Sequence record: NZ_CP018188.1
Length of the DNA: 64,000 nucleotides
Origin: a plasmid
Reading direction: 5' to 3' (one strand)
The position numbers and the translations under genes were made by a program. The notes beneath the pieces are model-generated. The model had not been told where the DNA came from. It saw nothing but the letters and a program-made list of their open reading frames with translations, and did no database searches. Below are positions 5,422 through 53,284 of the stretch, piece after piece. The stretch's first letter is position 1. Each line of letters begins with the position of its first letter.

Positions 5422-6969
5422 CTAAAACTGAATGTTAAGCTTTCCACAATGGGCTAAAAATTGTTCTGCTTCTTTCTTTGCCTCTTCATCTGCGGATTTG
5501 TTCCTTTCTCCTTTCAGTTGAATGATCCTATTGTTTTTCAATTCAAGAGTATAGAGAGGGGTTTCTCTGTCAGTTTTATCACGAACAAAGACAATAATAG
5601 AAGTTCCGTAGACAAAGTGTTTTTTTGCATAACTTCCAACACAATGATGTAGGGTTTTGCCTTCTTTGACAATTTCACTTTCGTCTTTAGGAAAGATAAA
5701 AGCATACTTGTCAAATGCGGTCTGAGCCTTCATCATGTTTGTCAAACGTTTAGCTGTTTCAATCTTCAACTTCGCCTCTTTCTTTTCGTCCTCAAGGCGT
5801 TGTTTCTCTTCTCTCAAATCTCTGACAGCATTAGTTACACGTAAATATGTACCACGTGCTTGTTGATTCTCGAGAAGAGCTGAATAATTTTCTACGACCT
5901 CTGTATGTTTGTTTTCCCAATTTTTTGGGATAACTACATAATCTCCATCAAATGGAATTCCCAGAGCTTCTACCATTTCTTGATAGTCCTCATAATCACG
6001 AAGGGAGATATTGTTTTTCATCATCCAGTTAATAAAACGAATTGGTTTCACAGTGGATGGTATGATACTTTCCAAACGCTTAATTAGTGGCTTCTTGTCA
6101 GAAATCATAGCGTTTATAATCAACTCATATAACCCCTCGAAGGTTCGACCATATCGTCTACGCAAATCTTCCTCGAAAAATGCCTTTTCAACATTTATAT
6201 CCGTATTTTTTAGATACGGTTTATTCCTTTTAAGAAAGTTCATGGTAGCCTTCCCCATATTTGTATGCTTGTGCCCAAGACTATATGAGTAATATGATCT
6301 ATAAAACGTAGACCCTACCAAATCTTTGACGATTCCACGCGCCTTGATTTTTTGAGCGAATTCAATACGCTCTCTATATTTATAAAGATGAGGTAGCACT
6401 AAGCTTATCTCAAAATTATCTTTAATCACTTGTCCAAAATCTAAATATCTCAACTCAGACTTTGTTTGTAATTTCTGAATAAGACTTTCCATATCCCCAT
6501 AAAGCGTATAGACACTAAATGCACCAGAACCAAAAAAGAGAGCATTCCTCTGATTTTGGAATCCACTTCTATAGATATCTTTACCTTTTTGGGCTGAAAG
6601 AAATGGATCCCGGTGTGCTTTAACAATCTTATTGTTGGCAAGCTGATAAAAGTTGTAAAGTCTGACTTTGAACTTTTCTTTTCCTTTTTCGAAGGATTGA
6701 GTCACAGAATACATCTGCATTTCAATGCGTTTCTTTGTGACTCCCATCCAGACATAGTAAAAAGTATCACCTACAAAGGTTAAACGGCTGTTAAGTGATA
6801 AGCGTTTTGTAACCTTTTTCGAAAATTTTTTTCGGTCTGAAGAGATAATTGTCCTGGACTTATTAGTCCATTCATAGATAGGAAAATCATTCATCGCCCA
6901 CTTGAAAAATCCGTTAGGAACTTTTAGACGATTGTCAACGATTTCTTGAATAGTCATTTCTTTTGTCAT
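5422..6969 (-). CDS. PcfJ-like conjugative-plasmid protein
   Basis: 515-aa ORF with ribosome-binding site GGAGAAAAACAATG. The C-terminal region (KEGKTLHHCVGSYAKKHFVYGTSIIVFVRD...) resembles the PcfJ domain of pCF10-type conjugative plasmids. Confidence 0.55.
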   Translation of the reverse strand: MTKEMTIQEIVDNRLKVPNGFFKWAMNDFPIYEWTNKSRTIISSDRKKFSKKVTKRLSLNSRLTFVGDTFYYVWMGVTKKRIEMQMYSVTQSFEKGKEKFKVRLYNFYQLANNKIVKAHRDPFLSAQKGKDIYRSGFQNQRNALFFGSGAFSVYTLYGDMESLIQKLQTKSELRYLDFGQVIKDNFEISLVLPHLYKYRERIEFAQKIKARGIVKDLVGSTFYRSYYSYSLGHKHTNMGKATMNFLKRNKPYLKNTDINVEKAFFEEDLRRRYGRTFEGLYELIINAMISDKKPLIKRLESIIPSTVKPIRFINWMMKNNISLRDYEDYQEMVEALGIPFDGDYVVIPKNWENKHTEVVENYSALLENQQARGTYLRVTNAVRDLREEKQRLEDEKKEAKLKIETAKRLTNMMKAQTAFDKYAFIFPKDESEIVKEGKTLHHCVGSYAKKHFVYGTSIIVFVRDKTDRETPLYTLELKNNRIIQLKGERNKSADEEAKKEAEQFLAHCGKLNIQF

Positions 6970-6990
6970 TGTTTTTCTCCTTAATCAATA

Positions 6991-7015
6991 AAAAATGGCC
7001 CTAGGACCATTTTTT
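6991..7015 (-). terminator. rho-independent terminator (AAAAATGGCCCTAGGACCATTTTT)
   Basis: GC-rich imperfect palindrome flanked by an A-run and a T-run between two minus-strand genes. The same CCCTAGG-centred hairpin family recurs at 37910 and 47646. Confidence 0.5.
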
Positions 7016-7612: not shown

Positions 7613-8413
7613 TTATTTAACTAAAGCTACGTTTCGTTTCCCATCTTGTCCTTGTTTCATTTCTAAAACATCATGTGGGATTAAAAAGTCATCTTGATAG
7701 GCTGTTGTAACGACACTTAATCCTGCAGCAACAGCCTTAAGTACTGCTTCTACTTCTTCTTGTGTATTAGCTTCACCGATAAACAAGACATTAGGATTAA
7801 AGCGTGGGACTAAAGTGACCAGAGCATCATAGTCCATACGGTTAACCTCATTGACTTGTAGCTGGCCAAAAGATACATCCTTAATTTCGACATGTCTTTC
7901 AATTGTCATTACTTGCCCTTCTTTAAAAGCTTCAGCAAGTATCAAGTAGGCTAAAGTCGTTTTACCAACACCTGGACAACCAGTAATGACGTGTAAGCCC
8001 GGAATGCGTACTTGTTCAAGTACGTTTTCCAAGCTACTATCAAAATCAAAGTCACGCAAAGAAACTCGATGCTCATCCCCATTGATACAATCTAATAGTC
8101 GTATAGCCATCGTTTCTAGACCTCGAAAATCGCCTACCGTTGATATCTTGATGGTGATAACTCTACCATCATCCAACGGATAGTCACAAGTACCTAGTTG
8201 CCCACGCCGTTTTTCGATTACAATCATATCAGCCATAACTTTTATATGATTAAATAGAACATCCGCATCTTCTGATGAAATGTGGTCATAGACCTGTTTG
8301 ACACCAGCTTTTCTAAATGCTACCTCGTATTCTTCACCATGTGGGAAGAAGGTAATATCTTGGATATTGTTATCGATAGCTTTTTTAAAAGCCTGTTTAA
8401 TGTAAGTAATCAT
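7613..8413 (-). CDS. compact GspE/PilT/VirB11-superfamily secretion ATPase
   Basis: Internal start MITYIKQ follows the ribosome-binding site GAGGAGAAAAACAATG. The layout is typical of T2SS-E/PilT N-terminal and Walker A regions: ...DDGRVITIKISTVGDFRGLETMAIRLL...IPGLHVITGCPGVGKTT...ERHVEI...GQLQVNE...VLFIGEANT. Confidence 0.55.
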   Translation of the reverse strand: MITYIKQAFKKAIDNNIQDITFFPHGEEYEVAFRKAGVKQVYDHISSEDADVLFNHIKVMADMIVIEKRRGQLGTCDYPLDDGRVITIKISTVGDFRGLETMAIRLLDCINGDEHRVSLRDFDFDSSLENVLEQVRIPGLHVITGCPGVGKTTLAYLILAEAFKEGQVMTIERHVEIKDVSFGQLQVNEVNRMDYDALVTLVPRFNPNVLFIGEANTQEEVEAVLKAVAAGLSVVTTAYQDDFLIPHDVLEMKQGQDGKRNVALVK

Positions 8414-8426
8414 TGTTTTTCTCCTC

Positions 8427-9890
8427 TCAGAACTCAAACAAGCTTAACTGCTCTCCTTCAGTCGTTGGTTTATCATCATGTGGCTTTCGACAAGCTACTA
8501 ATGCTTTTGGCACCTTCTCGACCTTATAAATTGGTTGCATAGCACGATAGTTCTCAAAGAACGTATCAAAAAATGCAAACAAAAGGTGTCGACATTGCCT
8601 TAAAGCCCTATACTCTAATCGAGTATAGTAAGTTGCTTCATCAGATAGCAATTCTGAATCCTTGGTATAAGTTTCAAAAACCCACCATTCAAAGCCACGT
8701 GCAAACACCTCGGTTGGTGTCAAATAATAGTCCAACTTCTTCTTAATGTGAACAGCTTGAGCTAAGTCCGTTCTGGTTTCCTCAGCTATTTGAATTAACT
8801 TCAGCAAGCTAGCCTTGTAGATATGACGAATATCTTTAAAGCTATGTGATGTAGAACTAATGATCCCAGCTTTATCATACGTATAGTCTAAATAATGTCC
8901 ATACTCATGTATGAATGATGAGGAATCTCTTACATCAACTGCCATGATATTTAATCCAGGCACATAAAGTCCGCTTGCTTTATGTTTTCCTAGCTTTCGG
9001 AATTTGAGTTCTGGCTCTACAGCCGAATGAGGTAAGTGATTACACAACTTCTCCCATTCCTTCTCTAGAACCTTGAATTTCTCCTTGTTAAAATCACTAC
9101 CTCGATAACGCTCAGTATCAACTTCAACTTTCGAAAACCCTAAATCAAGAAATGACGTGTTACTGTTCATTTCATAATCTTGAAAGATTTTATCCTCACG
9201 CACACTAGCTATCGTCTTAGTTGACTGATTAACATATTGTGCATTGAGGTTGGCTGCAAGTGCATCTTCATACTCTCTTTTAAGGACGTTAGCTATTTTT
9301 TGGATATTTCCATAATAACTACATTCCTTGTAGATACCTTCACTATGGATAGACATCAATTCAAGAAAGCTAAAAGATACTAGTCCATACCTCGTTTGAG
9401 AGCTACTCTCTCTCCAAAAATTTAGGTTTTTCTTCAACGGTACTCTAACCTTTGAATCGTCAATAATGAGAAGATACAAGGTTCGTTTGGTATCTTCTGC
9501 ACTTTTAGTAGCAGGTAATCTACTTCCATGTAGTGTGAGAAGAATCTGTTCACCAAAGAGGTGTTCTTTATTTTCTTCATCTCTCAAATTCATACCCTCG
9601 AACAGTCTTTTTAGTTTATTCGAAAAATGAGCTTGATCATAACCAATGGTTTCAATATCAGCCATAATGTCTTTGACTTTGTAGGCTGTATAGACATTTT
9701 CCTGTCCGAATACCTCTACTGCTAGTGCTCCGACTTCTTGAGATAAAAGTTCCTGACAGTGATATCTGCGAATATTCGCATAATAAGTACAAAACTTTCT
9801 CACGATATCGCAAGCTTTATCAGTCTCTTTTATCTTGGGAAAAGTGACTTTTTTAGCAGTTTTTTGTGCTACTGTTAGTAAATTGGTCAT
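8427..9890 (-). CDS. HExxH zinc-metallopeptidase-domain protein (ArdC/SprT-like) with C-terminal QLSLF motif
   Basis: 487-aa ORF with a HEYGHYLD (HExxH) motif. The C-terminus is ...TTEGEQLSLFEF. Ribosome-binding site GGAGAAAAAACAATG. Confidence 0.5.
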   Translation of the reverse strand: MTNLLTVAQKTAKKVTFPKIKETDKACDIVRKFCTYYANIRRYHCQELLSQEVGALAVEVFGQENVYTAYKVKDIMADIETIGYDQAHFSNKLKRLFEGMNLRDEENKEHLFGEQILLTLHGSRLPATKSAEDTKRTLYLLIIDDSKVRVPLKKNLNFWRESSSQTRYGLVSFSFLELMSIHSEGIYKECSYYGNIQKIANVLKREYEDALAANLNAQYVNQSTKTIASVREDKIFQDYEMNSNTSFLDLGFSKVEVDTERYRGSDFNKEKFKVLEKEWEKLCNHLPHSAVEPELKFRKLGKHKASGLYVPGLNIMAVDVRDSSSFIHEYGHYLDYTYDKAGIISSTSHSFKDIRHIYKASLLKLIQIAEETRTDLAQAVHIKKKLDYYLTPTEVFARGFEWWVFETYTKDSELLSDEATYYTRLEYRALRQCRHLLFAFFDTFFENYRAMQPIYKVEKVPKALVACRKPHDDKPTTEGEQLSLFEF

Positions 9891-10027: not shown

Positions 10028-10630
10028 CTAATTATTGTTATCAAGTTTCCTTGCGAAATCTCGTTTATGGCGTTTGTGACTCTCTATATTTCGAGAAATA
10101 TCATTCTTATCCCAGATTTGTAATTCCCAAGGATAAGAAAAATTACTTCCGTTTTTGAAATAGACATAGATACCAGTGTAGTCTTCTGTATCCTTTAAAT
10201 ACCAATTTTTAAGACCGTATTCTTCCTTCCAATCATCTAAACGATTCACCACTTCAGTAATGACAGATGTTGGCAAAATGACACGTGCTCCAAAAATATC
10301 ATTTAAAACTGAATTTACTGGATACCCTTCGGGTCTTTTAGTAAAATGCTCAATCTTATCTAAAATAGATTCAGATGTTTTCACTCGATAGAAGTAACTA
10401 ATATCGCTGACATCTGCTACCATCAAATAATCGTTGATTGACTCGTGCAGATTCAAACGATATTTTAGAATCTCATCAACTGGCACCTTAACAAAAGTGT
10501 GCTTAAGATTAACTTTAGCAAGTTTACCACTTTCAAAATACTCTTCTGAGTACTTTTTATGAATGGTGTTGATTTCAGAGATCAGTCGCTCTACTTTATT
10601 GATATCTGTCACAAGCTTATACTTCTCCAT
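10028..10630 (-). CDS. RelA/SpoT-domain nucleotidyltransferase (small alarmone synthetase-like; toxSAS candidate)
   Basis: 200-aa ORF. Motifs FYRVKTSESILDKIEHFTKRP and NDIFGARVIL (D-x-x-G-x-R-[IV]) are present. A divergent ELQIW occupies the position of the EIQIRT motif of (p)ppGpp-synthetase-fold enzymes. Confidence 0.5.
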   Translation of the reverse strand: MEKYKLVTDINKVERLISEINTIHKKYSEEYFESGKLAKVNLKHTFVKVPVDEILKYRLNLHESINDYLMVADVSDISYFYRVKTSESILDKIEHFTKRPEGYPVNSVLNDIFGARVILPTSVITEVVNRLDDWKEEYGLKNWYLKDTEDYTGIYVYFKNGSNFSYPWELQIWDKNDISRNIESHKRHKRDFARKLDNNN

Positions 10631-10662: not shown

Positions 10663-11991
10663 CTACAGGTTATAGGTCTTAAATCTAATTTTTTCTTCTG
10701 GGGAAGCTTTTAAAAGAAAATCATCGATTCCCTTTTCGTGAGGCCAGATTAGAGCACGAACTGTACAAGACTGCTTAGTGACTAGATCTTTAACCATGTC
10801 ATACATACGTTCAAATACCGAGTCATTATCCTCAAAGTCTTGGTCAAATGCAAGATAAATTGGTTTAACCTTTTTGAGTTCAGTCTTTCCGATAAAGTCC
10901 GAGATAGGACGCCATGCTGCTACTCCTGCCATAGAAATAACACAGATGCTACCCAGTTGTGAGAGACGAGTGTTTTTCGCAACCGATGCGGTGATATCCC
11001 CTTTAAGCAGACCTTCAGTAACTAGAAGGTTATCAACCTTACTCATAAGATTGACTTTAGCCTTACCTTCATCAGAAAAGCGTGCTAGTTCTAAAATATC
11101 ATCTGAATAAGCAAAATGTGGAAAGGACTTAGCACTTGTTCCCTCTGGCTTATATGCTGATGATACAAAGACATATTTTTGTCCTTTTTTAAAAGTCAAC
11201 TCAAGTCCAGAACAAAACTTAACACTAGTTTCCTTAGTTGTCCCACTTGCTAGTTCATGTGATGAACCTTTAGCAAACACATACCAATTGAAGGTCCCAT
11301 CGTCATTTTGGAAGACCTTAGCAGTACGTGCATTTCGTCCCTCTTGAAAGCCTTCATTAACTTTAGCTTGATAACTAACGTTATCAAGACGTACTTGAAA
11401 GCCTACAATTTGTCCCCATGAATTGCGACATGGAATTAGGATTCCATCTTTTGATTCAAAAATAGGACATTTTGCGTTTTCGTTCCAGTAGAAGCCAGGA
11501 ACTCCACGCCATGCATCTTTAGGAAGGCCATTTGCAACAAAAAGCTTTTCCCAAATAGTTGCAGGATGAGATACTGTAGTATCAACCTGCTTCTGCCGTG
11601 TCTCTTTTGTCGATGAAGCATATCCACGTAAGGCAATAGTCTCAACAGAAAGACCTCGTTCTGCACTTGTTAAGTGCTTGACATGGTCCTTAGTCAATCC
11701 TAACACATCAATCACAAGAGAGTTCACCTTGTGAAGTGTTGAGATACTTGCCAAGGGCTGACTTTTCCAACTTGGTTCAAAAGTCACCTTTCTGGCTTTA
11801 TTTTTGTCCAATTCATAGATCGTCCCAGCACTACCAAATTGTGGTTTGTCTGGGTCAATCTTTCTAGCACAGACTGCCTTAGTCTGATCTGCAAAAACCA
11901 GACACCAATCTGGTTTTCCACAAATAGGACAAGGGTAATCACGTCCTACGCGAATTAATTCTTGATTTCCAATTGTGATTAGTTTAGTCAT
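10663..11991 (-). CDS. zinc-finger/TOPRIM primase-like protein
   Basis: 442-aa ORF. N-terminal CPICGKPDWC...C zinc-binding motif. C-terminal TOPRIM-like residues LVTEG...IYLAFDQDFEDND. Ribosome-binding site AAAGGAGAAAAAATG. Confidence 0.5.
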   Translation of the reverse strand: MTKLITIGNQELIRVGRDYPCPICGKPDWCLVFADQTKAVCARKIDPDKPQFGSAGTIYELDKNKARKVTFEPSWKSQPLASISTLHKVNSLVIDVLGLTKDHVKHLTSAERGLSVETIALRGYASSTKETRQKQVDTTVSHPATIWEKLFVANGLPKDAWRGVPGFYWNENAKCPIFESKDGILIPCRNSWGQIVGFQVRLDNVSYQAKVNEGFQEGRNARTAKVFQNDDGTFNWYVFAKGSSHELASGTTKETSVKFCSGLELTFKKGQKYVFVSSAYKPEGTSAKSFPHFAYSDDILELARFSDEGKAKVNLMSKVDNLLVTEGLLKGDITASVAKNTRLSQLGSICVISMAGVAAWRPISDFIGKTELKKVKPIYLAFDQDFEDNDSVFERMYDMVKDLVTKQSCTVRALIWPHEKGIDDFLLKASPEEKIRFKTYNL

Positions 11992-12548
11992 TTTTTCTCC
12001 TTTAAAATGTTGTTGTAAAGTTACCTTGGAAAGCCTCGAATACCTATTCGTAGCCTTTCCTCCGCCTACTGACAGTTTAGACTTGGGAACACCTGTTCCT
12101 CGCCTCTAAACATCGAGATGTCGCCTTCCTTTTTTGTCCTTCTACCCAAACTCAAAACAAAAAAAGCATAACAAAGAAGCCGGCAAGCCTTGTCTCAAAA
12201 AACAAGGATGCGCGTGCCTATGGCAAACCATAGGATAAACTTCTCGTTATGCTTAGTTGCTAATAACGTTTGTTGTAGCCTTTCAAAAACTCAAGGCAAA
12301 TTATCTCGTACGTGTTTCAAAGCGTTAAGCCCCTTTTTCTGTCTGATGGCTTAACTGATAGCTAAAAGCGAGTACGCTCCCTTTTAACCCAATTAAACAT
12401 GGTATGCTTTTCACTGGGACAGATCCAGTAATGACATCTCCTCCTCCATGTTTCCTCTTTTCTCTAGTCACGTGACCAAAGATTCACCGTTAGAGGTGTG
12501 GTGAATTGATATAAATTAAACAATTTATGTCTTTAGTATAGCAAAGAG
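11992..12548 (-). repeat. ~555-bp highly structured element, copy L (inverted copy of 43010-43566), directly 5' of the primase-like operon
   Basis: About 88% identical to the reverse complement of 43010-43566. It has many conserved local hairpins (CTTGT..ACAAG, CCTATGG..CCATAGG, GTTAAGCC..GGCTTAAC, AGCG..CGCT) and a long-range complementary pair (CACCTCTAAC ... ATTAGAGGTG). It ends at the ribosome-binding site/ATG of the downstream gene. Confidence 0.6.
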
Positions 12549-12549
12549 A

Positions 12550-13740
12550 AATTAACATTACAAGTTTATCGTTATTCGGATAATAACTTTATATACTGCT
12601 CTCAATTATATTTTTCAATACATTATATATAGCACATGATACATAGCCCATAGTTTACTACACACTATGTATCGTTTGATGGACATAATAAAATAGAGAA
12701 ACAACCCTTTCTTAGTAAAGCTTATACAAGATACAATGTTAAACTATGTATCTTATATCGTGGGCTATTCGAATCAGCCTTTTACTAATTTCTTAATTAC
12801 CTTAAGATGAATAGAATAAAAATAATGTTATATAGTTTTTAAATGTATCGTTCACTATACATAGTGGATAATCCACTATATACTATAGAACTATAGAATA
12901 TATATTATCTACAATACATTATGTATCGCTTTTTCGACTATGATAAGATAGGGAGCAATCTTCACTAGAATATACAAGATACATTATTAAACTATGTATC
13001 TTGTATCGTAGGCTATTCAAACCAAACCTTTTACTAATTTCTCAAATGTCTTAAGATGAATAGAATAATAGTCATATATAGTTTTTCTATGTATCGTTCA
13101 CAATACATCGTAGATTATCCAATATATACTATAAATATATATAATATATATATTTTACAATACATAATGTATCGGGTATTATACAACCTATGGAACATGC
13201 GAATAATTCAAATATATACGATACATTTTTATCTATCTATAGTACATTGATAATATTTATATCGTCTACGATACACTATTAAGTGTGTACGATTCTATAG
13301 TACACTATATGTAGATATACTATGTATATTATATAGTGTAATGTCTCCTGACAAATTATACTTAGTCCGTGAGATAACTAGCAGGTTTTATGTAAACTAT
13401 TTATCTCTACAATATACATAGTATATAATAAAACAGTACATCGTCTTCAATGTATTACCTTTAGGTATATATTGTATCGTGTATTATATATCACTCTAGT
13501 CAAGATTTTATTCTATGTAGTATGATTTCTTTTGACTAGCATATAGTGAACGATACACTATGTATAAGCTATTTTGGAAATAGAGTTATCCACTATGTAC
13601 TATACATAGTTTATCTTGTATTGTTTACGATATATCTTACATACTACTTGATATTAGATTTCTATATGGTATACTTTAAGTAGTTAATTATATGTATCGT
13701 TTTATTATACATAGTGTATCGTATATCGGATTGAAAGGAG
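12550..13740. repeat. AT-rich repeat region upstream of parA: two tandem ~250-bp direct repeats (about 12712-12960 and 12961-13210) plus many short (G/A)ATACATCG / TGTATCG half-sites; candidate centromere (parS-like) / regulatory array
   Basis: Direct alignment of 12722-12895 with 12971-13140. The motifs ATGTATCG and CGATACA recur about 15 or more times on both strands. No convincing ORF (13056..13250 is a repeat artefact). Confidence 0.55.
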
Positions 13741-13745
13741 TAGAT

Positions 13746-14576
13746 ATGGTTGCAAAAACAATCGTAGTCATGGATGAAAAAGGAGGGGCAGCCAAAACAA
13801 CGTTAAGTTTGTTATTGGCTCAAGCTCTAGGAAATGCTGGATATAAAACGTGTGCTGGTGACCTAGACGGCCAGTGCAATCTAACTACAGCAGCAGGAGT
13901 GAATGAAGACGAACAAGAAGGAATCTATTCCGTACTAAAAAAAGAAGTAGACATAGTTGATGCTATTATTCCAGTCGACGGATATGATTTACTTCCAGGT
14001 AGTAAACTAATGAAGAACTGGGAGAGTGAAGCATCTGGTTTAAAAGATAGGGATTTTCGTTTAAGAAACGTTGTTCAAGATATCAATGACTACTATGATT
14101 TTGTACTCTTTGACACACCTCCATTTTTCGGTGTTTCTACAACAAGTACCCTTTTTACAAATTCAAAAGTTTATGTTCTTATTCCTACAACACCAGATAA
14201 GTTTGGTATCGAAGGGGTAAAAGATACCATTGAAGATATTGAAGCTGTTCAAGAAGGATTTTCATTCTTTGGAATTGATATTGTTATAGCAGGAATCGTT
14301 ATAACTCAAGTTGATAAGGGGTCTGGTTTTAGTAAAAAATCTATAAAACAAGTTAAAGCTAGGGAAGCAGTAGCAACACTTGAGAAAATTGCTGAAGAGC
14401 ATAATACTAAAGTTTTTGAACAATACTTGTTTAATAATAAACAATACAAAGATATGATTGCTAATCAAGCAAATGTATTTACCAATACAGGTTATAGCAT
14501 CCCTCAAAAACAAATCACAAATGTTATGAATGAACTAATTAAGACGATTGGAGAACACAATGGCGAAGAAGCTTAA
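13746..14576 (+). CDS. parA: ParA/Soj-family partition ATPase
   Basis: MVAKTIVVMDEKGGAAKTT carries the deviant Walker A KGGxxKT. Ribosome-binding site AAAGGAGTAGATATG. The 13692 start in the track is an upstream in-frame extension. Confidence 0.85.
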   Translation: MVAKTIVVMDEKGGAAKTTLSLLLAQALGNAGYKTCAGDLDGQCNLTTAAGVNEDEQEGIYSVLKKEVDIVDAIIPVDGYDLLPGSKLMKNWESEASGLKDRDFRLRNVVQDINDYYDFVLFDTPPFFGVSTTSTLFTNSKVYVLIPTTPDKFGIEGVKDTIEDIEAVQEGFSFFGIDIVIAGIVITQVDKGSGFSKKSIKQVKAREAVATLEKIAEEHNTKVFEQYLFNNKQYKDMIANQANVFTNTGYSIPQKQITNVMNELIKTIGEHNGEEA

Positions 14577-15333: not shown

Positions 15334-15570
15334 TATCCTATAAAACTGTATGTATATCCTACAAAATGGTAGGTATATCCTATAACTTTGCATGAAAGTC
15401 ACACAAAGTTGCATGTTAAGTCTACAAAAGTGTATGTATCTCATATAAAATGGTAGGTGTGTCCTACAAAACGGTAGGTATGTCCTATAAAGTTGTATGT
15501 TAAGTCTACGAAAGTGCATGGATTTCATATAAAATGGTATGTATATCCTACAAAATGGTTGTAAATTTTA
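15334..15570. repeat. iteron array (~11 x ~21-22-bp direct repeats, e.g. ATCCTACAAAATGGTAGGTAT) upstream of rep
   Basis: Visible tandem periodicity: cctataaaactgtatgtat / cctacaaaatggtaggtat / tctacaaaagtgtatgtat / cctacaaaacggtaggtat ... The ORF 15322..15528(-) is a translation artefact of the repeats. Confidence 0.6.
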
Positions 15571-15747: not shown

Positions 15748-17211
15748 TTGGTAGAGAATAGAGAGTTCAGAGAGATCATCAAGTATGATAATAAGTTTAC
15801 CCAAATGTTCCAACTTGGAGACCTTTCGCCTCTTCAAGAAAATATGATTTACTCTATATTTGGTGAGTTGCGAGATGTTTATGACGAAAATGAAGCAGCA
15901 ATATTTTCTTATTCGAGTCTAGCAATGCTAGCAGGAAATACTTTTTTCAGTTCTAGGGAGCAAAAGATTGTTCCTAGGACTGGGAAACGATTTGAAACTA
16001 CAGTTGAGGAACTAGAGGAAAGAATGACTAAAATTGTATATCGACATCCCGAAAAAGTTGTCGATGGTAAGGTAGTCTCTTACACCTCTATTCCACTATT
16101 CAAGACCTTTAGAGTAGACCATGAAAATAAACTCATTAAAATCCACTTGTCTGATGCGGAATACACTGAGTATGAAGAAGTTACTACAGAAGATGGAACA
16201 AAAGTAAAAGTAGAGGTCAAGCGTACAGTTAAAGACCTTTTCAATAACCCTGAGTGGGGTAAAAAAGCTAAGTATATTCAGTATGGGCGTGATTACCATA
16301 ACTTATTGAAGAGTAAGTATTCTAAACGATTATTTAGGCATTTAGCGGACTGGCGTAAAACTGGGTTTGTAAAAGATACAGCTGAAGAGCTTGAACAAGA
16401 AGTTTTGATTTTGGATAGTCCTAGTTTACTTCGTTCAAAGGGGACTAAGCTGCAGCAAGCACTGGATGAAATTAATACGCTATTAGTTGATGAGCATGGC
16501 CTTCCTGTCATACAGGATTTAACAGTAGAGCGAATCAAAAAGGGGAAATCTATTACCCATTATATTTTTAGATTTAAGCCATTCGATGATGATTTGAGAC
16601 GTATTGTTGCCACAAATGATAAAGTCATAACTTTCGAGAAGAAGAAGGAATTGGACATCAAGCGTAAGATGGCTATCGTGATGGAAAAGTTCTACACAAT
16701 CTTTCCTAAAGGAAGTAAAGCAGACAACTACAATAATAAAAATCAACTAAAACATTGGCTTGAAACAATGGATCATGAACTTGTCATTGAGGCATTGGAA
16801 CGAACAGGAAGTGACGGAAACCGTACTTTTGGTTGGACAAGAACCTTGCTTAATAAATGGGAAGTAGCAGGATATACAAAACTTTCAGACTTGAGAGATA
16901 AGCATCCAACTAATAAAGATAATCGCTCATCAAATGTTCCAGACTGGTCTGAGCCAAATTATGAAAATGGAACTGATGACAAAGACCGTTTAAGACTAGT
17001 AGTAGTAGCAGTTAAATCAGCTATTAAAATGGAACTCTCTAAGACGGCAGATGAAGACAATAAGGTAAATATTAAACATTTAGCAGAGAATCTGTTACAA
17101 GAGAAACTGTCTGAACTTAGTGAGAAAGGATTGGAATCACTGTCTGAAAGTCATTTTGAAGAGACGAGAGAACAACTTTTAGCTGAGGTACTGAGTTATT
17201 TTAAAATATAA
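15748..17211 (+). CDS. plasmid-type replication initiator / replisome-organiser protein with DnaD-like C-terminal domain
   Basis: TTG start with ribosome-binding site GAGAGGT. 487 aa. The C-terminus (LETMDHELVIEALERTGSDGNRTFGWTRTLLNKWEVAGYT) resembles the DnaD/DnaB_2 domain of Firmicutes Rep/replisome organisers. It is preceded by iterons. Confidence 0.5.
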   Translation: MVENREFREIIKYDNKFTQMFQLGDLSPLQENMIYSIFGELRDVYDENEAAIFSYSSLAMLAGNTFFSSREQKIVPRTGKRFETTVEELEERMTKIVYRHPEKVVDGKVVSYTSIPLFKTFRVDHENKLIKIHLSDAEYTEYEEVTTEDGTKVKVEVKRTVKDLFNNPEWGKKAKYIQYGRDYHNLLKSKYSKRLFRHLADWRKTGFVKDTAEELEQEVLILDSPSLLRSKGTKLQQALDEINTLLVDEHGLPVIQDLTVERIKKGKSITHYIFRFKPFDDDLRRIVATNDKVITFEKKKELDIKRKMAIVMEKFYTIFPKGSKADNYNNKNQLKHWLETMDHELVIEALERTGSDGNRTFGWTRTLLNKWEVAGYTKLSDLRDKHPTNKDNRSSNVPDWSEPNYENGTDDKDRLRLVVVAVKSAIKMELSKTADEDNKVNIKHLAENLLQEKLSELSEKGLESLSESHFEETREQLLAEVLSYFKI

Positions 17212-19519: not shown

Positions 19520-19653
19520 AAAGTAAGGGAGGAACATAGTATTGGTTTGTCGCCTGTTCAAGAGAATTAAGGGAAGTACCTTAATTCTTCATTATCAATA
19601 TAATCTAAATATTATTGTTTTAAATAGATGCTAAAAATAGGAGATGTGGTTTG
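19520..19653 (+). pseudogene. remnant of 3' end of an AgrC/ComD-like histidine-kinase gene (duplicate of 22700-22824)
   Basis: Aligns with the last ~130 nt of the intact kinase gene: ...agagaattaagggaagtacc... versus ...agagattttagggaagtaccc..., ending ctaaaaatagGagatgtggtttga. No upstream kinase body. Confidence 0.55.
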
Positions 19654-19672
19654 ATTGAACCATATCTTTTTG
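19642..19672 (+). terminator. rho-independent terminator (copy 1 of duplicated hairpin)
   Basis: AGATGTGGTTTGATTGAACCATATCT plus a T-run. Paralogous to 22812-22843. Confidence 0.5.
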
Positions 19673-19789
19673 TTGTCCTTTGTAACAAATATCTACCCCG
19701 ATATTGGTTTTGTAAAAAACATATATGTTTAGAATAATAGAAAATTTCGGAAAAACAATTTTCTAATCTGATGATAATACTATGTGTAT

Positions 19790-19826
19790 TATATGCGAAT
19801 AAAATATGATAAATTGCTAGTAATGA
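19790..19826 (+). promoter_or_regulatory. candidate LytTR-type direct repeats (TGCGAATAAA ... 21 bp ... TGCTAGTAAT) in promoter of truncated YSIRK gene
   Basis: Two imperfect 10-bp direct repeats with 21-bp start-to-start spacing, about 100 bp upstream of the ATG. The same arrangement occurs upstream of the intact paralogue. Confidence 0.3.
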
Positions 19827-19928
19827 CAATTTTTTAACTATTTATGATTTATAACAATTTGATAGATATAGTCATGTTGAACTCTTCTGCATAGGGAAGA
19901 GTTATGAAAAAGACTAGGAGATATTATT

Positions 19929-20550
19929 ATGAAATATAGTTTTTATCAAGTTGCTCAACGTTTCTCAATTCGTATGTATTCTTTTGGTGCTGCTTCTGTG
20001 ATTTTAGGTTTTTTCCTACTTTCTGGTGTACAGACTGCTCATGCTGATGAGAAAGTGGCTGTTTCTGAATCAACTACAAGTATTACTAGTGATAATGGAG
20101 TTGTATCAGATAAAGTAACTTCTTCAAATGCTGAGATTGTTCTTTCTGAAGCTACTGTTTCAATTCCCAAGGAAAGTTTGGTACCAAGCTGACAGACAAA
20201 GTGATGGTAGCTACAAGGTTCGCATCAATGTTAGAGACCATAGGGCTGAAGCGGGCGAATACATTGTCCATCTCTATTATGTTCAAGACGGTAAGATGAT
20301 AGGTATCGGAGGCACTAGTACAACTGTTCCAGTACAAAATGCAACCCGCCACAACCTTCCATCTTTAGGTTCATATACCTTTACAGATCGTACTGGTATT
20401 AAGACTCAACCTTTGGTAGCCAACCCAGATGTTAGCTACTACGATGCTGGTAAGTCAGTAAACTATGACAAGGTCCTAACAGCTGATGACCACACCTGGT
20501 TGTCTTATGTAACCTATAGTGGTGCAAGACGCTATGTGGATATTTCTTAA
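19929..20550 (+). pseudogene. truncated/frameshifted paralogue of YSIRK-CHAP-SH3b hydrolase gene (signal peptide + last Bsp-like/SH3b repeats only)
   Basis: ORF 19929..20192 is the N-terminal 80 aa, about 90% identical to 23105 (MKYSFYQVAQRFSIRMYSFGAAS...). It then shifts frame into ORF 20128..20550, which matches the C-terminal ~140 aa of the intact protein. The internal ~1.2 kb, including the CHAP domain, is deleted. Confidence 0.7.
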
Positions 20551-21508: not shown

Positions 21509-22824
21509 TAGCAATCAATTTTGTGTTGGATAATCTCGACTTTTTAGTGGAGATTATCCTCTTTATTCTCATTTATCAATACATTACCTCCGAGAAGATA
21601 AAGCTAAGATGGTATATCATCATCCCCTTGATTATCCGATTTTTATTTGTGCTTTCTCCAGCTCTATCCTATGTTTTAGGGCATGCCTTCTTGGTTGTTT
21701 ATTCCCTCTACAGAAATCGTTATGGCAATAGGTTATTAGATATTTTCTATGGCTTGTTTCCAATCGTCATAGAAAGTCTTGTTCACAATCTTATTATTTA
21801 TGGGATTGCCTTAGTTATCAATCGTCATTATCTGATTGTACTTAACCATTTTCATTTAAATCTTGTCATTGGGTTGTTGGTCTTTCCCGTATTTTGGTTA
21901 ATCATTAAGACCTTAAAAGTGAATTTCAAAGCGTTGAACTATGGTTTTAGAAAGTCATTTTCAAAGTACTTTTTATTGCTTATAGATATATCAATGTTAT
22001 CTTATGCCCCGCTTCTCCAATATATTACCTTTTTTGTGCAACAGAGCCCTGGAGGAAGAGATTGGCATGTTTACCTGGTGGTGACCTATGCTTTACTCTT
22101 TCTTGCGACCCTTGTTTATATCAATGCGACCTTCAGCGAAAGACTCAAAGAAGAAGTCCTTCTCCAAAAAGATAAGCAAATGAGTGATTTGGCTCATTAT
22201 AGTCAACAAATCGAACAACTCTATACGGATCTTCGTCGCTTCAGGCACGATTACCTAAATGTTTTGTCTAGTATAAAATACGGCATTGACTCCAAGGATA
22301 TGGCTATTATTTCCGATATCTACGATAACATTCTTGAAAAAACAAAGACTCAGATTGAGGGAAAACAGTACGAAATTGCCAACTTGATTAATATTAAAGA
22401 TGAAGCTGTTAAAGGTGTCTTGGCTAGTAAAATCTTGGAAGCACAAGGTCAGTCCATTACCATTCACCTTGAGGTCAGTGATATCTTTGAAGTATCGAGG
22501 ATGGAATTGTTGGATTTCATAACAGTGCTGTCCATTTTTTTGGATAATGCTATTGAAGCTAGTCTGGATAGCAGTACTAAAGAAGTAAACATTGCTCTTA
22601 TCAGTGGAGAGACAAAGGTAGTAATAGTAGAGAATACCATTGCTCAAGAATCTATCAATACAGTCGGTATCTTTAAACTTGGTCGCTCAAGTAAAGGAGA
22701 AGGACGTGGTATAGGTCTGTCCACTGTTCGAGAGATTTTAGGGAAGTACCCTAATTGTTCTTTGTCAACACAATCTAAAGACTATCGTTTTAAACAGACA
22801 CTAAAAATAGAAGATGTGGTTTGA
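21505..22824 (+). CDS. AgrC/ComD/BlpH-like (HPK10) membrane sensor histidine kinase
   Basis: Overlaps the response-regulator stop (ATGA). About 6 N-terminal transmembrane helices. The C-terminus has the GHKL ATPase region (...GRSSKGEGRGIGLSTVREIL). Confidence 0.8.
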   Translation: MIAINFVLDNLDFLVEIILFILIYQYITSEKIKLRWYIIIPLIIRFLFVLSPALSYVLGHAFLVVYSLYRNRYGNRLLDIFYGLFPIVIESLVHNLIIYGIALVINRHYLIVLNHFHLNLVIGLLVFPVFWLIIKTLKVNFKALNYGFRKSFSKYFLLLIDISMLSYAPLLQYITFFVQQSPGGRDWHVYLVVTYALLFLATLVYINATFSERLKEEVLLQKDKQMSDLAHYSQQIEQLYTDLRRFRHDYLNVLSSIKYGIDSKDMAIISDIYDNILEKTKTQIEGKQYEIANLINIKDEAVKGVLASKILEAQGQSITIHLEVSDIFEVSRMELLDFITVLSIFLDNAIEASLDSSTKEVNIALISGETKVVIVENTIAQESINTVGIFKLGRSSKGEGRGIGLSTVREILGKYPNCSLSTQSKDYRFKQTLKIEDVV

Positions 22825-22843
22825 TTGAACCGCATCTTTTTTT
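22812..22843 (+). terminator. rho-independent terminator (copy 2)
   Basis: AGATGTGGTTTGATTGAACCGCATCTTTTTTTG, overlapping the kinase stop codon. Confidence 0.55.
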
Positions 22844-22964
22844 GTCCTTTGAAAACAAGTACCTGATCCTATATTTGTTTATTTAAATATATATATATAT
22901 ATCCAGAATACTTGCAAAGTTTCCAAAAAACTGACTTTCTAATCTCAATGAAAGAAATATTTAT

Positions 22965-23003
22965 ATTTTGTGTGAATAAATATAATAAATTTGTAATAGT
23001 GAC
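22965..23003 (+). promoter_or_regulatory. candidate LytTR-type direct repeats (TTTGTGTGAATA ... 21 bp ... TTTGTAATAGTG) upstream of CHAP hydrolase gene
   Basis: Imperfect direct repeats with 21-bp periodicity, followed by an AT-rich -10 region. Paralogous to 19790-19826. Confidence 0.3.
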
Positions 23004-23104
23004 AATTTTTAGACTTTTTGCGATTTATATTAATTTGATAGTCATAGTCGTGCTATACTTTTTTGCATAGGAGAGAGTTATGAAAAAGACTAGGAGATAT
23101 TATT

Positions 23105-24946
23105 ATGAAATTTAGTTTTTATCAAGTTGCTCAACGTTTCTCAATTCGTAAGTATTCTTTTGGTGCTGCTTCTGTGCTTTTAGGGGTTTTCCTACTTTCT
23201 GGTGTACAGACTGCTCATGCTGATGAGAAAGTGGCTGTTTCTGAATCAACTACAAATATTACTAGCGATAATGGAGTTGTATCAGATAAAGTAACTTCTT
23301 CAAACGCTGAGATTGTTCTTTCTGAAGCTACTGTTTCAGTTCCAAAGGAAAGTTTGGCACCTGCAGAAGCACCCTCAAGTGCTGTGACACCAGAAAAGAC
23401 AAGTGAGAGCTCTAAGCATGTTGAAACAGTTACTGCGGATGAAACTCACAAAGTTGAAAATACTTCAGAACCAATATCAACAGTAGAAGAAAAGGTTAAC
23501 GTAGCGACAAATACTGATAAGGTATCTGATAAAAAAGTTACTACTCCAAACATTCCAAATGAGCCAAATAAAAAAATTGAGTCGGAGGTACATGAAGATA
23601 AGGAGACTGAAAAAGCAACTGTAACAGAGAAAATTTCTGAACCAAAAGTTCCTGAAATTATAACAGATAATAACTCATCAACACCAAGCACTGGTTATTC
23701 GAGGTTATTTAGTGTTGGAAATATTAGACGACCTTTGTCTAATAATTCTAGAATCGGTGATGACTATCCAGTGGCTTGGCGTAATAATCCGGAGGAATGG
23801 GATAGCTGGGGTTATGCAACTGCTTATTGTACTTCCTTTGTTGCTAATAGACTCTACCAAGTTAATAAATTGGATACACCTAGAGGTTTAGGTCATGCTA
23901 GACAATGGGGTGGAAATGCAAGAAGTATGGGATATAGAGTTGATAATATTCCTACTAGAGGCTCTGTAGCATATTTGGACGATGGTCTTTATGGTCACGT
24001 TGCTTGGGTGTCAGCCGTCAAAGGTGATAATGTAGAAATCGAGGAGTATAACTATGGGTCAACCTATCGGTTCCGTTATCATAGTCGTGTGGTTCCCAAA
24101 AATTCATTCACTGGTTACATCCACTTTAAAGATTTAAAAAGTAGCAATACAAGTATCCCTGATACTCCAACACCAACAGATAATACAGGAAGTAATTTAG
24201 CTTCTTCAGGATTTTATCAATTTACAGAGAGAGTAAGCATTAAAGCTGAACCAAAAATGTCTGCCCCAGAACTTGCCTATTATGAAGCAGGAAATACTGT
24301 CAATTATGATAAAACACTCCAAGCAGACGGTTATGTCTGGATTTCTTATCTATCATATGCAGGAAACCGTCGCTATATTCCAGTACAAAAACTTTCAACG
24401 GAGGTAAAACCAGAGGTTAAAGGAACCATTAATGTTTTAAATAAGAATGACCAGTCAGGTACCTTTGATGTTGTGATTTCAAATGTTTCAAGTAATGTTG
24501 GACTAAAAGAAGTTCAAGTTCCAATCTGGTCAGCAAAAAATGGGCAAGATGATTTGAAATGGTATAAAGCTGTTAAACAATCTGATGGTACCTATAAGAC
24601 TTCTGTAAAAATCAGTGATCATAAGAATGACAGAGGAGAATATCTTATCCATCTCTATTATGTTACTGATAGTGGTAAACAAATTGGTGTAGGTGGGACA
24701 ACGACAACTGTAGAAAGTGCTTCAACTACATCTAATCCTTCTAAACCATCAATTCCTAATAGTGGTGTTTATACTTTCAAAGGCCATGCAAGTATCAAAG
24801 CAGAACCAAAGATTTCTGCACCTGAGTTGGCATATTATGATGCTGGAAATACAGTAAATTATGATACCCTTATTCAGGCAGATGGTCACTATTGGATTTC
24901 TTACTTATCATATTCAGGTGCTCGTCGTTATATTGCGATTAACTAA
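23105..24946 (+). CDS. secreted YSIRK-signal CHAP-domain peptidoglycan hydrolase with Bsp-like and SH3b-type C-terminal repeats
   Basis: YSIRK-G/S signal (FSIRKYSFGAASVLLG). CHAP Cys/His (ATAYCTSFVANR ... YGHVAWV). Two C-terminal ~50-aa repeats (SIKAEPK(M/I)SAPELAYY(E/D)AGNTVNYD...) and a GBS Bsp-like repeat (WYKAVKQSDGTYKTSVKISDHKNDRGEYLIHLYYV). Confidence 0.8.
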   Translation: MKFSFYQVAQRFSIRKYSFGAASVLLGVFLLSGVQTAHADEKVAVSESTTNITSDNGVVSDKVTSSNAEIVLSEATVSVPKESLAPAEAPSSAVTPEKTSESSKHVETVTADETHKVENTSEPISTVEEKVNVATNTDKVSDKKVTTPNIPNEPNKKIESEVHEDKETEKATVTEKISEPKVPEIITDNNSSTPSTGYSRLFSVGNIRRPLSNNSRIGDDYPVAWRNNPEEWDSWGYATAYCTSFVANRLYQVNKLDTPRGLGHARQWGGNARSMGYRVDNIPTRGSVAYLDDGLYGHVAWVSAVKGDNVEIEEYNYGSTYRFRYHSRVVPKNSFTGYIHFKDLKSSNTSIPDTPTPTDNTGSNLASSGFYQFTERVSIKAEPKMSAPELAYYEAGNTVNYDKTLQADGYVWISYLSYAGNRRYIPVQKLSTEVKPEVKGTINVLNKNDQSGTFDVVISNVSSNVGLKEVQVPIWSAKNGQDDLKWYKAVKQSDGTYKTSVKISDHKNDRGEYLIHLYYVTDSGKQIGVGGTTTTVESASTTSNPSKPSIPNSGVYTFKGHASIKAEPKISAPELAYYDAGNTVNYDTLIQADGHYWISYLSYSGARRYIAIN

Positions 24947-42713: not shown

Positions 42714-42824
42714 GACTAAAAGGTTTATTTAGGAACCTTCAAGGTAATTATGAATAACCTTGTAAATACCAGATAGCCTAACCGGAAGCTAAGGCAAGAA
42801 GGTCGGGAGCTGGTCCATGTTGAG

Positions 42825-42926
42825 GTTTTGTTACTGTTCTATTTGACATGGTACTAAAACTTAGAGGAAGGTTAACCTTTAAAGTACATGGTTTTGTTAC
42901 TGTTCTATTTGATATGGGACTAAAGC
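42825..42926 (+). CRISPR. minimal CRISPR-like array: repeat (36 bp) - spacer (30 bp) - degenerate repeat (36 bp)
   Basis: R1 42825-42860 GTTTTGTTACTGTTCTATTTGACATGGTACTAAAAC. Spacer 42861-42890 TTAGAGGAAGGTTAACCTTTAAAGTACATG. R2 42891-42926 GTTTTGTTACTGTTCTATTTGATATGGGACTAAAGC (4 mismatches at the 3' end, as in terminal repeats). The 36/30 geometry and GTTTT...AAAAC ends match type II/V-style repeats. No cas1/cas2/cas9 in the window. Confidence 0.5.
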
Positions 42927-42943
42927 ATAAAATGTATATCATG

Positions 42944-42968
42944 CACCTTTTAGGTGTTTTTTTTGTTT
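42944..42968 (+). terminator. rho-independent terminator after mini-array
   Basis: CACCTTTTAGGTG plus T12. Confidence 0.45.
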
Positions 42969-43009
42969 TACTGTAAGTCACCTTTAATCTAAAGTTGCTA
43001 TTTTTTCAT

Positions 43010-43566
43010 GCGTTTGCTATACTAAAGACATAAATTGTTTAATTTATATCTAATTCACCACCTCTAACGGTGAACCTTTGGTCACGTGACTAAAGAAAAG
43101 AGAAGCATGGAGGAGGAGATGTCATTACTGGTTCTGTCCCAGCAATCGGCATACCATGTTTTATAAGGGGTTAAAAGGGAGCGTACTCGCTTTTAGCTAT
43201 CAGTTAAGCCATCAGATAGAAGAAGAGGCTTAACGCTTATAACAGGTACGAGATATTTGCCTTTACTTACTTTGAAAGGCTACAACAAACGTTATTAGCA
43301 ACTAAGCATAACGAGAAGTTTATCCTATGGTTTGCCATAGGCACGCGCAATCTTGTTTTTTGAGACAAGGCTTGCCGGCTTCTTTGTTATGCTTTTTTTG
43401 TTTTGAGTTTGGGTAGTTGGACAAAAAGAAAGGCGACATCTCGATGATTAGAGGTGAGGAACAGGTGTTCCCAAATCTAAATGGTCGTCATGCGGAGGAA
43501 AGTCTATGAGCAGGTGTTCGAGGCTTTCCAAGGTCACTTTACAACAACAATTTTTAAAGGAGAAAG
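43010..43566 (+). repeat. ~555-bp highly structured element, copy R (inverted copy of 11992-12548), directly 5' of the ssb-containing operon
   Basis: See copy L. It ends in the ribosome-binding site AAAGGAGAAAGACAATG of the first gene. Confidence 0.6.
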
Positions 43567-43569
43567 ACA

Positions 43570-43890
43570 ATGAGAAATTCTTTCAAAACAAGCTCTACTT
43601 ATAGAGCAGCAAGAAAACAACAAATGACAGCATCAAAAAATACTTTTTTTGATGCTGACGGCATGGTGATTTCTGCTTCAGATTGGGCTACTTTAGTTCT
43701 ATCTGGGGAGGTAGATCCTAAGACTTCTTGGTCTAATGATAATGTTAAAGGGAAACTTGAGAGAGTTTCCCCACGTAGCCATTGGACTAAGAAAGGCTTC
43801 AGAGAGTACCTTGGTAAATCAAGGTATGTCTCTAAACAAGATACTCAAGCAGAAGTTCTCGAGATGATGGATCTCGAGTTAGTTTTTTAA
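43570..43890 (+). CDS. small hypothetical protein, paralogue A (106 aa)
   Basis: About 60% identical to the next gene ([13 protein letters not shown](D/E)GM(V/M)(I/V)SAS(D/E)[10 protein letters not shown](D/N)PK.SWSND.VKG...SPRSH(W/F)TKKG). Confidence 0.5.
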   Translation: MRNSFKTSSTYRAARKQQMTASKNTFFDADGMVISASDWATLVLSGEVDPKTSWSNDNVKGKLERVSPRSHWTKKGFREYLGKSRYVSKQDTQAEVLEMMDLELVF

Positions 43891-43902
43891 AGGAGAAAGA
43901 CA

Positions 43903-44271
43903 ATGAGAAAATCAATGACGAAAAAAATGAGAATGGTTGATACCTATTCTCCAAAACACTTCAGAACAAGCTCTACTTACAGAGCAGCACGAAAAAAACA
44001 GAAAACGGCAACAAGAAAGTCGTTCTTTGATGCAGAGGGCATGATGGTCTCTGCTTCAGAATGGGCTACTTTAGTTCTTTCTGGGGAGGTAAATCCTAAA
44101 AATTCATGGTCTAATGATCATGTTAAGGGGTATATCGATTATTTATCCCCACGTAGCCATTTCACCAAGAAAGGTTACAAAGAATTTTGTGGAAAAAGCC
44201 ATAAGTTTTCTGATGGATTAGATGAAGGGGAAATCGTATTCCTCGACATTGAAGTCGTAGCAGAGGATTAA
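43903..44271 (+). CDS. small hypothetical protein, paralogue B (122 aa)
   Basis: Tandem duplicate of 43570..43890 with an identical ribosome-binding site. Confidence 0.5.
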
Positions 44272-47641: not shown

Positions 47642-47645
47642 ACAG

Positions 47646-47672
47646 AAAAATGGTCCTAGGGGCCATTTTTTT
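47646..47672 (+). terminator. hairpin terminator (AAAAATGGTCCTAGGGGCCATTTTTTT)
   Basis: Member of the same CCTAGG-centred hairpin family as 6991 and 37910. Confidence 0.45.
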
Positions 47673-47694
47673 ATTTTATAAAGGAGAAAAAACA

Positions 47695-52977: not shown

Positions 52978-53284
52978 TATATAACGGTTCATTACCATAT
53001 ATTGGGTAGTGAACCGTTTTTTGTCTCTAATCCTTTTGGTAAAAGGAACATTCATATTCATTCGCTCGAAGGTTGTTATTAGGTATCCAGTTAGGTGCTA
53101 TACCCATTAGACTTGCTATATCTTCAAGAGGTCTTTATCACACTCAATGATGACTTCATCATTAAGGAGTTGCTATGTATTGGTGGTAGTGTAAAATAAG
53201 TTGTGTAAACACAAAATTATTGATAGTATCCGATGATTTTAAGATATAGAGTAGTTAGAAATGAATTAAGGATAGTGGTTTAAA

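Follow-up and report, generated by a model that had tools for sequence, protein, structure and literature searches.

The 64,000-nucleotide window of plasmid DNA analysed here (sequence record NZ_CP018188.1), from a Streptococcus salivarius megaplasmid, contains two copies of a hairpin-rich element, each of approximately 555-570 bp, which lie in inverted orientation and lead into two divergent operons. The inverted repeat (12004-12568 versus 42990-43553) is 82-97% complementary per block, and the right and left copies are 90.7% identical over 559 nt (blastn). Homology starts approximately 30 nt upstream of the −35 box of a predicted promoter and ends at the ribosome-binding site (RBS), with none beyond; the left copy adjoins the ATG of a minus-strand open reading frame (ORF; 10663-11991) and the right copy that of ORF 43570-43890, each copy being sense-oriented relative to its own operon. 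These results bear out an earlier interpretation made from the letters alone, hereafter the sequence-only reading, which had described near-identical inverted elements, each ending at the RBS or ATG of an operon's first gene. The GC content of the element (0.39-0.42, compared with 0.31-0.41 in the flanks) is not markedly high.

The left operon encodes a DUF3854 protein, a RelA/SpoT-like protein, a protein with a weak Pfam match to LPD1, a T2SSE ATPase, PcfK (annotated as AcrIIA9 in relatives), PcfJ and an SNF2 protein. The right operon opens with two paralogous genes, the first of which encodes a homologue of the anti-CRISPR protein AcrIIIA2 of about 106 residues (PDB 9nq7_T, E 2.6e-37; both paralogues match phrog_25846), and continues with a single-stranded-DNA-binding protein (SSB), a PD-(D/E)XK nuclease, ERF, RadC and AbiEii, ending near 52977. 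AcrIIIA2 blocks type III-A CRISPR in Streptococcus thermophilus (PMC13575424); here its homologues stand in tandem ahead of ssb on a plasmid, not a phage. The gene content given by the sequence-only reading was broadly right for both operons, except that its 'metallopeptidase' corresponds to the weak LPD1 match, and we agree with its view that both operons are of an establishment or anti-defence, leading-region-like nature.

Eight Streptococcus salivarius/equinus megaplasmids (126-236 kb) each contain the element twice, and a phage collection and IMG/VR yielded no copies. A metagenome scan returned 94 stretches, comprising 83 full-length copies and 77 distinct sequences; these 77 copies, on which the comparisons below are based, are close relatives with a mean column identity of 86%. 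All 77 end at the RBS of one of three genes, encoding DUF3854 (21), the AcrIIIA2 homologue (26) or SSB (28), and the element was never seen apart from these first genes, such that its position upstream of operon starts, anticipated for related elements, held throughout. Four metagenome copies (L034:172-777, L038:4172-4776, L083:1731-2336 and L085:3644-4255) join one copy's flank to the other copy's gene in reciprocal combinations (parA-side flank with AcrIIIA2; orf430-side flank with DUF3854). Such junctions are expected from recombination between the inverted copies that flips the central ~30 kb, although chimeric assembly across the repeat is another possible origin.

The outer edge of each copy carries a sigma-A-type promoter motif of the form TTGnnA-17-TGCTATACT, with an extended −10 (Table 1); the TTG of the −35 box and TGCTATACT are invariant in 77 of 77 copies. 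A promoter scan of both copies revealed no promoter-like site between the terminator described below and the RBS, and the operons have no promoter motif other than that of the leader.

Transcription from these promoters would give a leader RNA of similar structure in each copy (Table 1). Folding of the sense-strand RNA gives −176 kcal/mol (z-score −6.5) and of the antisense strand −148 kcal/mol (z-score −5.8), well outside what chance would give and in keeping with the earlier description of the element as hairpin-rich, and the consensus structure of the 77 copies comprises 121 pairs, with 99.6% of cells paired. Within the 5′ domain (hairpins H2-H6) the haplotypes include compensatory changes and changes that preserve pairing as G-U. 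Two finer points of the sequence-only reading fared less well. Its 'loop differences' between CTTGTctcaaaaaaACAAG and CTTGTtttttgagACAAG are a single hairpin seen from opposite strands, with no variation. The long-range pairing CACCTCTAAC/ATTAGAGGTG, said to close the element, is present in the window but is not conserved: the site reads CACCTCAAAC in most of the copies, whilst the partner varies (GGTG, GGCG, GACG, GATG or GCAG) without compensation, which rules out a closing helix as a conserved feature.

Downstream of the 5′ domain, the best-conserved part of the leader, a core of approximately 150 nt that is nearly invariant in the 77 copies, is predicted to fold as a Y-shaped (three-way-junction) domain followed by a run of U residues. 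The predicted domain combines a stable stem with a U-run on the transcribed strand, as in an intrinsic terminator, and is atypical in that the stem encloses two hairpins. The same arrangement is seen well beyond the close family: eight of nine leaders, representing at least five sequence-diverged groups, have a closed two-hairpin domain of 82-122 nt (−33 to −43 kcal/mol) followed by U6-8, with the run positioned 159-209 nt before the ATG, whereas the same procedure gave a comparable domain at 2 of 171 other T-runs of the window. In L102, the only diverged leader still alignable to the S. salivarius element, the closing stem is kept by compensation (GCATAAC/GTTATGC to GCACAAC/GTTGTGC) and one inner hairpin is swapped for an unrelated one. 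As the stretch from terminator to RBS contains nothing promoter-like, expression of the operons should depend on read-through.

Table 1. Predicted features of the two leaders and their adjoining genes, with the corresponding domain of EGeRS1 from pLS20 (window coordinates unless a record is named)
Feature	Position	Strand	Details
Right sigma-A-type promoter	42995-43023	+	TTGCTA-17-(TG)cTATACT; promoter scan
Left sigma-A-type promoter	12535-12563	−	TTGTAA-17-(TG)cTATACT; promoter scan
Right predicted leader RNA	43030-43569	+	~540 nt; start inferred from −10 position
Left predicted leader RNA	11992-12528	−	same helices as right copy; 90.7% identical
H1, AT-rich hairpin/palindrome at predicted transcription start	43028-43049	+	
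5′ domain hairpins H2-H6	43054-43234	+	H2 43054-43074; H3 43076-43095; H4 43105-43159; H5 43169-43198; H6 43203-43234
Right Y-shaped (three-way-junction) terminator	43305-43392	+	88 nt; −35.7 kcal/mol; ~14-bp closing stem around two hairpins
Left Y-shaped terminator domain	12166-12253	−	88 nt; −36.8 kcal/mol; two hairpin tips
Right U-run	43393-43405	+	TTTTTTTGTTTTG; U7; 180 nt before ATG
Left U-run	12153-12165	−	177 nt before ATG
3′ segment hairpins H8 and H9	43448-43529	+	H8 43448-43480; H9 43494-43529; C-AGGU-G loop in each
RBS and ATG of right operon's first gene	43556-43572	+	RBS AAAGGAGAAA
Left operon first gene, DUF3854 protein	10663-11991	−	Pfam PF12965
Right operon genes 1-2, AcrIIIA2 homologue and paralogue	43570-44271	+	43570-43890; 43903-44271
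EGeRS1-B Y-shaped domain	L006:45828-45953	−	
U-runs of other EGeRS1 copies	about NC_015148 49050, 51976, 53902		

The substitutions among the 77 copies indicate which strand is constrained. RNAalifold gave −101.8 kcal/mol and 122 pairs for the sense strand, compared with −67.5 kcal/mol and 91 pairs for the antisense strand. For a comparison that is strand-symmetric and blind to the variants, the majority consensus was folded with G-U pairs forbidden, and the 145 pairs common to the folds of both strands were used. Variant cells in these pairs comprise 312 G-U and 129 A-C combinations as read on the sense strand, and pairs with variants in at least two sequences number 33 and 13, respectively. 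Transitions that make G-U pairs occur at 53 versus 23 sites in paired columns and at 39 versus 48 in unpaired columns (Fisher p = 0.0016); mutation bias, as judged from the unpaired columns, is thus no explanation of the G-U excess. The preference for the sense strand is the same in copies before DUF3854 and in copies before AcrIIIA2 or SSB. Three more distant leaders which can be aligned with one another (L104, L108 and L149) show double-sided compensation at 18 pairs of the sense strand; their covariation term is 9.6 for this strand, compared with 2.0 for the antisense strand.

The layout extends to plasmids in which the leader sequence does not align. We examined the regions upstream of DUF3854 homologues (37-67% identity) in other streptococcal plasmids; the non-aligning leaders have a promoter (TTGnnA-17-TGnTATACT or TATAAT) 505-578 nt before the ATG, an AT-rich hairpin directly after the −10, equivalent to H1, and hairpins with C-AGGU-G loops and G-U pairs in their stems, the CAGGTG motif being confined to the sense strand (14 occurrences, none of the complement). 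An 86-kb plasmid of S. equinus, p1_CNU_G6, the leader of which is not alignable to that of S. salivarius, has an inverted pair of its own (96.5% identical over 608 nt), with one copy before DUF3854 and the other before ssb, bracketing the arc of replication, partition and coupling-protein genes. At 16 remote Clostridial DUF3854 loci no comparable upstream leader was found. That the two copies are alike within a plasmid whilst the lineages have diverged suggests gene conversion, a shared plasmid-specific reader, or both. In this S. equinus plasmid (L153; NZ_CP046630, record 33000-71300, minus strand) the ssb-headed array is co-directional over ~38 kb and includes ERF, RadC, a toxin-antitoxin pair, type IV secretion system (T4SS) genes (VirB2-like, pLS20_p028 family and CHAP), Paratox, topoisomerase IA and the surface-exclusion protein PgrA; MOB-suite nevertheless types these plasmids as non-mobilizable.

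Taken together, these features lead us to propose, as the account which is on balance probable, that each copy is an attenuator-type leader RNA, a cis-acting regulator through which two anti-defence and establishment operons are controlled jointly. Of the functions put forward in the sequence-only reading, that of a large structured 5′ RNA leader is supported by the promoter, by pairing conserved on the sense strand, by a terminator-like domain whose distance from the ATG is fixed, and by the layout in diverged relatives. In outline, a constitutive-looking sigma-A promoter would start a folded leader RNA of ~540 nt; approximately 370 nt into it, the Y-shaped intrinsic terminator with its U7 would stop most transcripts, and only polymerase that reads through would reach the RBS 180 nt further on and express the genes of its operon, namely AcrIIIA2/ssb/ERF/RadC (right) or DUF3854/PcfK(AcrIIA9)/PcfJ/SNF2 (left). 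We infer that termination would be conditional, with the leader probably read by a plasmid-specific trans-acting factor, either protein or RNA; the choice between termination and read-through would then depend on this factor being missing from a fresh recipient or, alternatively, being present under some signal. Leaders that are alike within a plasmid and unalignable between lineages fit a single plasmid-specific reader of this kind.

Several points weigh against this proposal. Promoter, transcription start and termination are each predicted, and branched terminators are unusual. No conserved alternative (antiterminator) pairing was found in the leader: the sole candidate, 43096-43106, which could pair with the 3′ arm of the terminator, is missing from most copies. 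The ~150-nt core is almost 100% conserved, more than a stem needs, and this near-invariance makes it uninformative on pairing. Double-sided compensation is rare in the close family, with four pairs only, all of them in H9. Gene conversion between copies could carry the sense-strand bias from one to the other, and H1 may be a DNA operator rather than an RNA structure.

Other elements of control within the leader were considered and rejected. A leader-peptide mini-ORF after GGAGGAGGAG loses its ATG in several copies (to AAG or TAAG) and varies in the position of its stop, and a 29-codon ORF within the core is not conserved in L102. Kissing of the H2 loop (CACCUC) with the AGGU loops is possible in S. 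salivarius, with the partner absent in other lineages. A possible likeness between short parts of the leader and the repeat tags of type III CRISPR was likewise set aside. A countertranscript is likewise disfavoured, as the promoter scan showed no antisense promoter motif inside either copy. A search of Rfam 15, a check which the sequence-only reading had suggested, matched no family in the window at the gathering threshold, with noise only up to an E-value of 10, and seven distant leaders also gave no match. The product of the right operon's first gene, being an AcrIIIA2 homologue, is not a ConAn1-like antiterminator. The helix-turn-helix regulator annotated in the left operon of relatives has no place in the window's operon, where the overlap of ORFs 8427-9890 and 7613-8437 leaves no room for its gene, and it was thus discarded as a universal repressor.

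The folded leader might instead bind its own RNA polymerase and render it resistant to terminators in both leader and operon, that is, act as a processive-antitermination RNA in the manner of canT of Tn916, EAR or put; this activity, which can coexist with attenuation, we regard as unlikely. Structured cis-acting antiterminator RNAs of 340-450 nt do occur in Gram-positive conjugative elements (PMC11658703; PMC8191782), and pLS20 combines attenuation with antitermination (cATT plus conAn). The operons themselves contain strong terminator-like hairpins on the coding strand (47644-47672, 52983-53018 and 10052-10020), which is circumstantial evidence, the ssb-headed array of p1_CNU_G6 runs for ~38 kb through T4SS genes, and a near-invariant core would suit contact with a conserved host enzyme. 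However, the cores are wholly different between plasmid lineages, a pattern that better fits a plasmid-specific partner than host RNA polymerase; moreover, the element has no similarity to Rfam families including EAR, nor to pLS20 conAn2 or cATT, and its sequence carries no sign of such activity. Promoter and efficient-looking terminator also delimit what could be a discrete gene for a stand-alone non-coding RNA of ~375 nt, acting in trans on plasmid functions or host defence, with the operons expressed by leaky read-through. The extreme conservation of the core and the maintenance of two like copies would suit such a gene, but homology and conserved structure run on for 160 nt past the terminator to the RBS, the unit never occurs apart from the three first genes, and the operons lack another promoter motif, so we consider this quite improbable.

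It is highly unlikely, in our judgement, that the element has no dedicated function and is simply a duplicated promoter region, kept alike by recombination, whose main effect is as inverted repeats flipping the central 30 kb. The differences between left and right copies do form a mosaic pattern, and the four metagenome copies with reciprocal combinations of flank and gene are as this would have it; against it, the layout is conserved in lineages without alignable sequence, substitutions are strand-specific and preserve pairing, and the repeat always extends exactly from promoter to RBS. We give as little credence to a single-stranded-DNA (ssDNA) element on the transferred strand, whether a single-strand origin or primosome-assembly site (sso/ssi) or an Frpo-like promoter firing before complementary-strand synthesis, both of which the sequence-only reading had raised. 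Single-strand origins (ssoA/U/T/W type) are folded, orientation-dependent stretches of ssDNA with a conserved CS-6-like loop (TAGCGT), and no TAGCG is present on either strand of the element consensus. Frpo/ssi promoters active on ssDNA were reportedly described by Masai and Arai in 1997, and the element resembles those of F-like and IncI plasmids in its many hairpins and in its place on a transmissible plasmid, ahead of ssb and anti-defence genes. The context of anti-defence, ssb and establishment genes fits, both DNA strands fold well (z-scores −5.75 and −4.53), and leading-region genes of many plasmids use Frpo (PMC11541004). Frpo-type promoters, however, rely on a template-strand stem in which the −35 and −10 boxes are restored as duplex (PMC11541004). 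Here no stem does so: folding with DNA parameters leaves the promoter unpaired on either strand, and the best duplex between promoter and leader is no better than in shuffled sequences in seven leaders (z-scores −1.4 to +0.8). The element carries a canonical double-stranded-DNA promoter, and at ~555 nt it exceeds the range of 50-350 nt used for Frpo (PMC11541004). The strand under constraint, according to both the alifold comparison and the substitution pattern, is the non-template strand in each of the inverted copies, and the T-strand of the analogous EGeRS1 is likewise the non-template strand (PMC8708921). As divergent operons cannot share one T-strand as template, and one T-strand cannot account for constraint on the sense strand of both copies, the arrangement argues against an Frpo-like promoter and, since a single-strand origin would put one physical strand under constraint, makes an sso/ssi unlikely. 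Nor does it favour the suggestion that one copy per orientation guarantees function whichever strand is transferred, every copy being sense to its own operon.

The closest known counterpart of the proposed attenuator leader is EGeRS1 of the pLS20-family Bacillus plasmids, a multi-copy, hairpin-rich sequence of 420-750 bp that ends at the RBS of establishment operons (Val-Calvo et al. 2021, PMC8708921). EGeRS1 blocks read-through in its native orientation only, by a mechanism left unexplained (PMC8708921). Both elements occur as several near-identical copies per plasmid which cluster together, are of similar length with many inverted repeats and a very stable fold, and end at the RBS of an establishment or anti-defence operon. 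They also share the Y-shaped two-hairpin domain with its U-run: four pLS20 EGeRS1 copies contain a closed domain of 126 nt with exactly two hairpins (−54 to −62 kcal/mol) followed by U5 (Table 1), located in the 3′ part reported to be sufficient to block transcription (PMC8708921), and this domain may explain the orientation-specific read-through block of EGeRS1-B. In contrast, pLS20 has five co-directional copies rather than two inverted ones, EGeRS1 is markedly GC-rich (51% versus 38%; PMC8708921), and the invariant consensus-like promoter motif of the element here differs from EGeRS1, which showed no constitutive sigma-A promoter in reporter tests (PMC8708921). Comparison with the whole of pLS20 (nhmmer and blastn) gave chance-level matches only, whereas members of EGeRS1 would share >60% sequence identity; no homology to EGeRS1, conAn2 or cATT was found in these searches.

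Countertranscript-driven attenuation controls the rep genes of pIP501 and pT181. It also operates at prgQ of pCF10 (cited in PMC13401043); in all three a plasmid-specific trans-acting factor decides whether the leader terminator forms, which, if it applied here, would explain identical copies within a plasmid, although their leaders are much shorter, with simple terminators, and neither copy here contains an antisense promoter motif. The zipper-type attenuator cATT of the pLS20 conjugation operon, whose leader is 456 nt (PMC13401043), resembles the element in belonging to a Gram-positive conjugative plasmid, where a long operon is likewise preceded by a long leader, with an intrinsic terminator near the first gene, long imperfect stems and control at the elongation step. 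It differs in that a simple terminator hairpin stands beside a long stem-loop, extendable when a weak upstream hairpin pairs with the 5′ arm of the terminator, whereas here the terminator stem closes a three-way junction; in addition, cATT precedes conAn1, while the first genes here are not ConAn1-like, and there is neither a competing antiterminator pairing nor sequence similarity. The canT RNA of Tn916, a cis-acting processive antiterminator whose activity has been shown experimentally (PMC11658703), is by description also a structured RNA of 340-450 nt in a streptococcal/enterococcal conjugative element, orientation-specific and upstream of terminators and long operons. In contrast, the element here carries its own promoter and terminator, both recognised from sequence alone.

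Further features of the window lie within the operons or outside the leaders. The second gene of the left operon (10028-10630, minus strand) encodes the small RelA/SpoT-like (alarmone synthetase-like) protein, a weak Pfam match, which relatives annotate as GTP pyrophosphokinase and which is absent in some (CP015284). Each operon contains, once and on the coding strand, the same terminator-like hairpin (AAAAATGGTCCTAGGGGCCATTTTTTT) with an RBS-like AAAGGAG after it (6969-7014, minus; 47646-47691, plus). Between the left promoter and parA (13692-14576) are two tandem direct repeats of ~248 bp (12723-13174; 83-86% identical), possibly serving in partition or regulation. A pair of 40-nt direct repeats (42824-42929), which share 90% identity and are spaced by 66 nt, precede a terminator (42943-42957) and the right promoter and could be protein-binding sites. 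Iteron-like direct repeats of 21 bp (15338-15568) lie upstream of the replication initiator gene (15748-17211), and direct repeats of 200-300 nt (19529-20101 and 22699-23277; 76-90% identical, ~3.2 kb apart) are found around response-regulator and histidine-kinase genes.

The bacteriocin loci of probiotic S. salivarius strains reside on these megaplasmids, whose transfer in vivo has been reported (PMC3681767). The timing of anti-CRISPR, anti-restriction and ssDNA-handling genes in Gram-positive conjugative plasmids is little understood, and the ssDNA-promoter model of F-like plasmids does not suit pLS20. The element described here is a second, unrelated sequence family with EGeRS1-like placement and a branched, terminator-like domain, to which it adds a promoter and many natural variants. 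A broader generalisation, which we hold to be rather doubtful, is that long leaders with Y-shaped terminators, EGeRS1 included, form a general zygotic-induction switch at the RNA level for the establishment and anti-defence operons of Gram-positive conjugative plasmids. A factor made only in established hosts would then lock the junction in its terminating form, and the operons would be expressed in a burst shortly after the plasmid reaches a new cell. If true, such leaders would be the RNA-level counterpart of what ssDNA promoters do in F-like plasmids.

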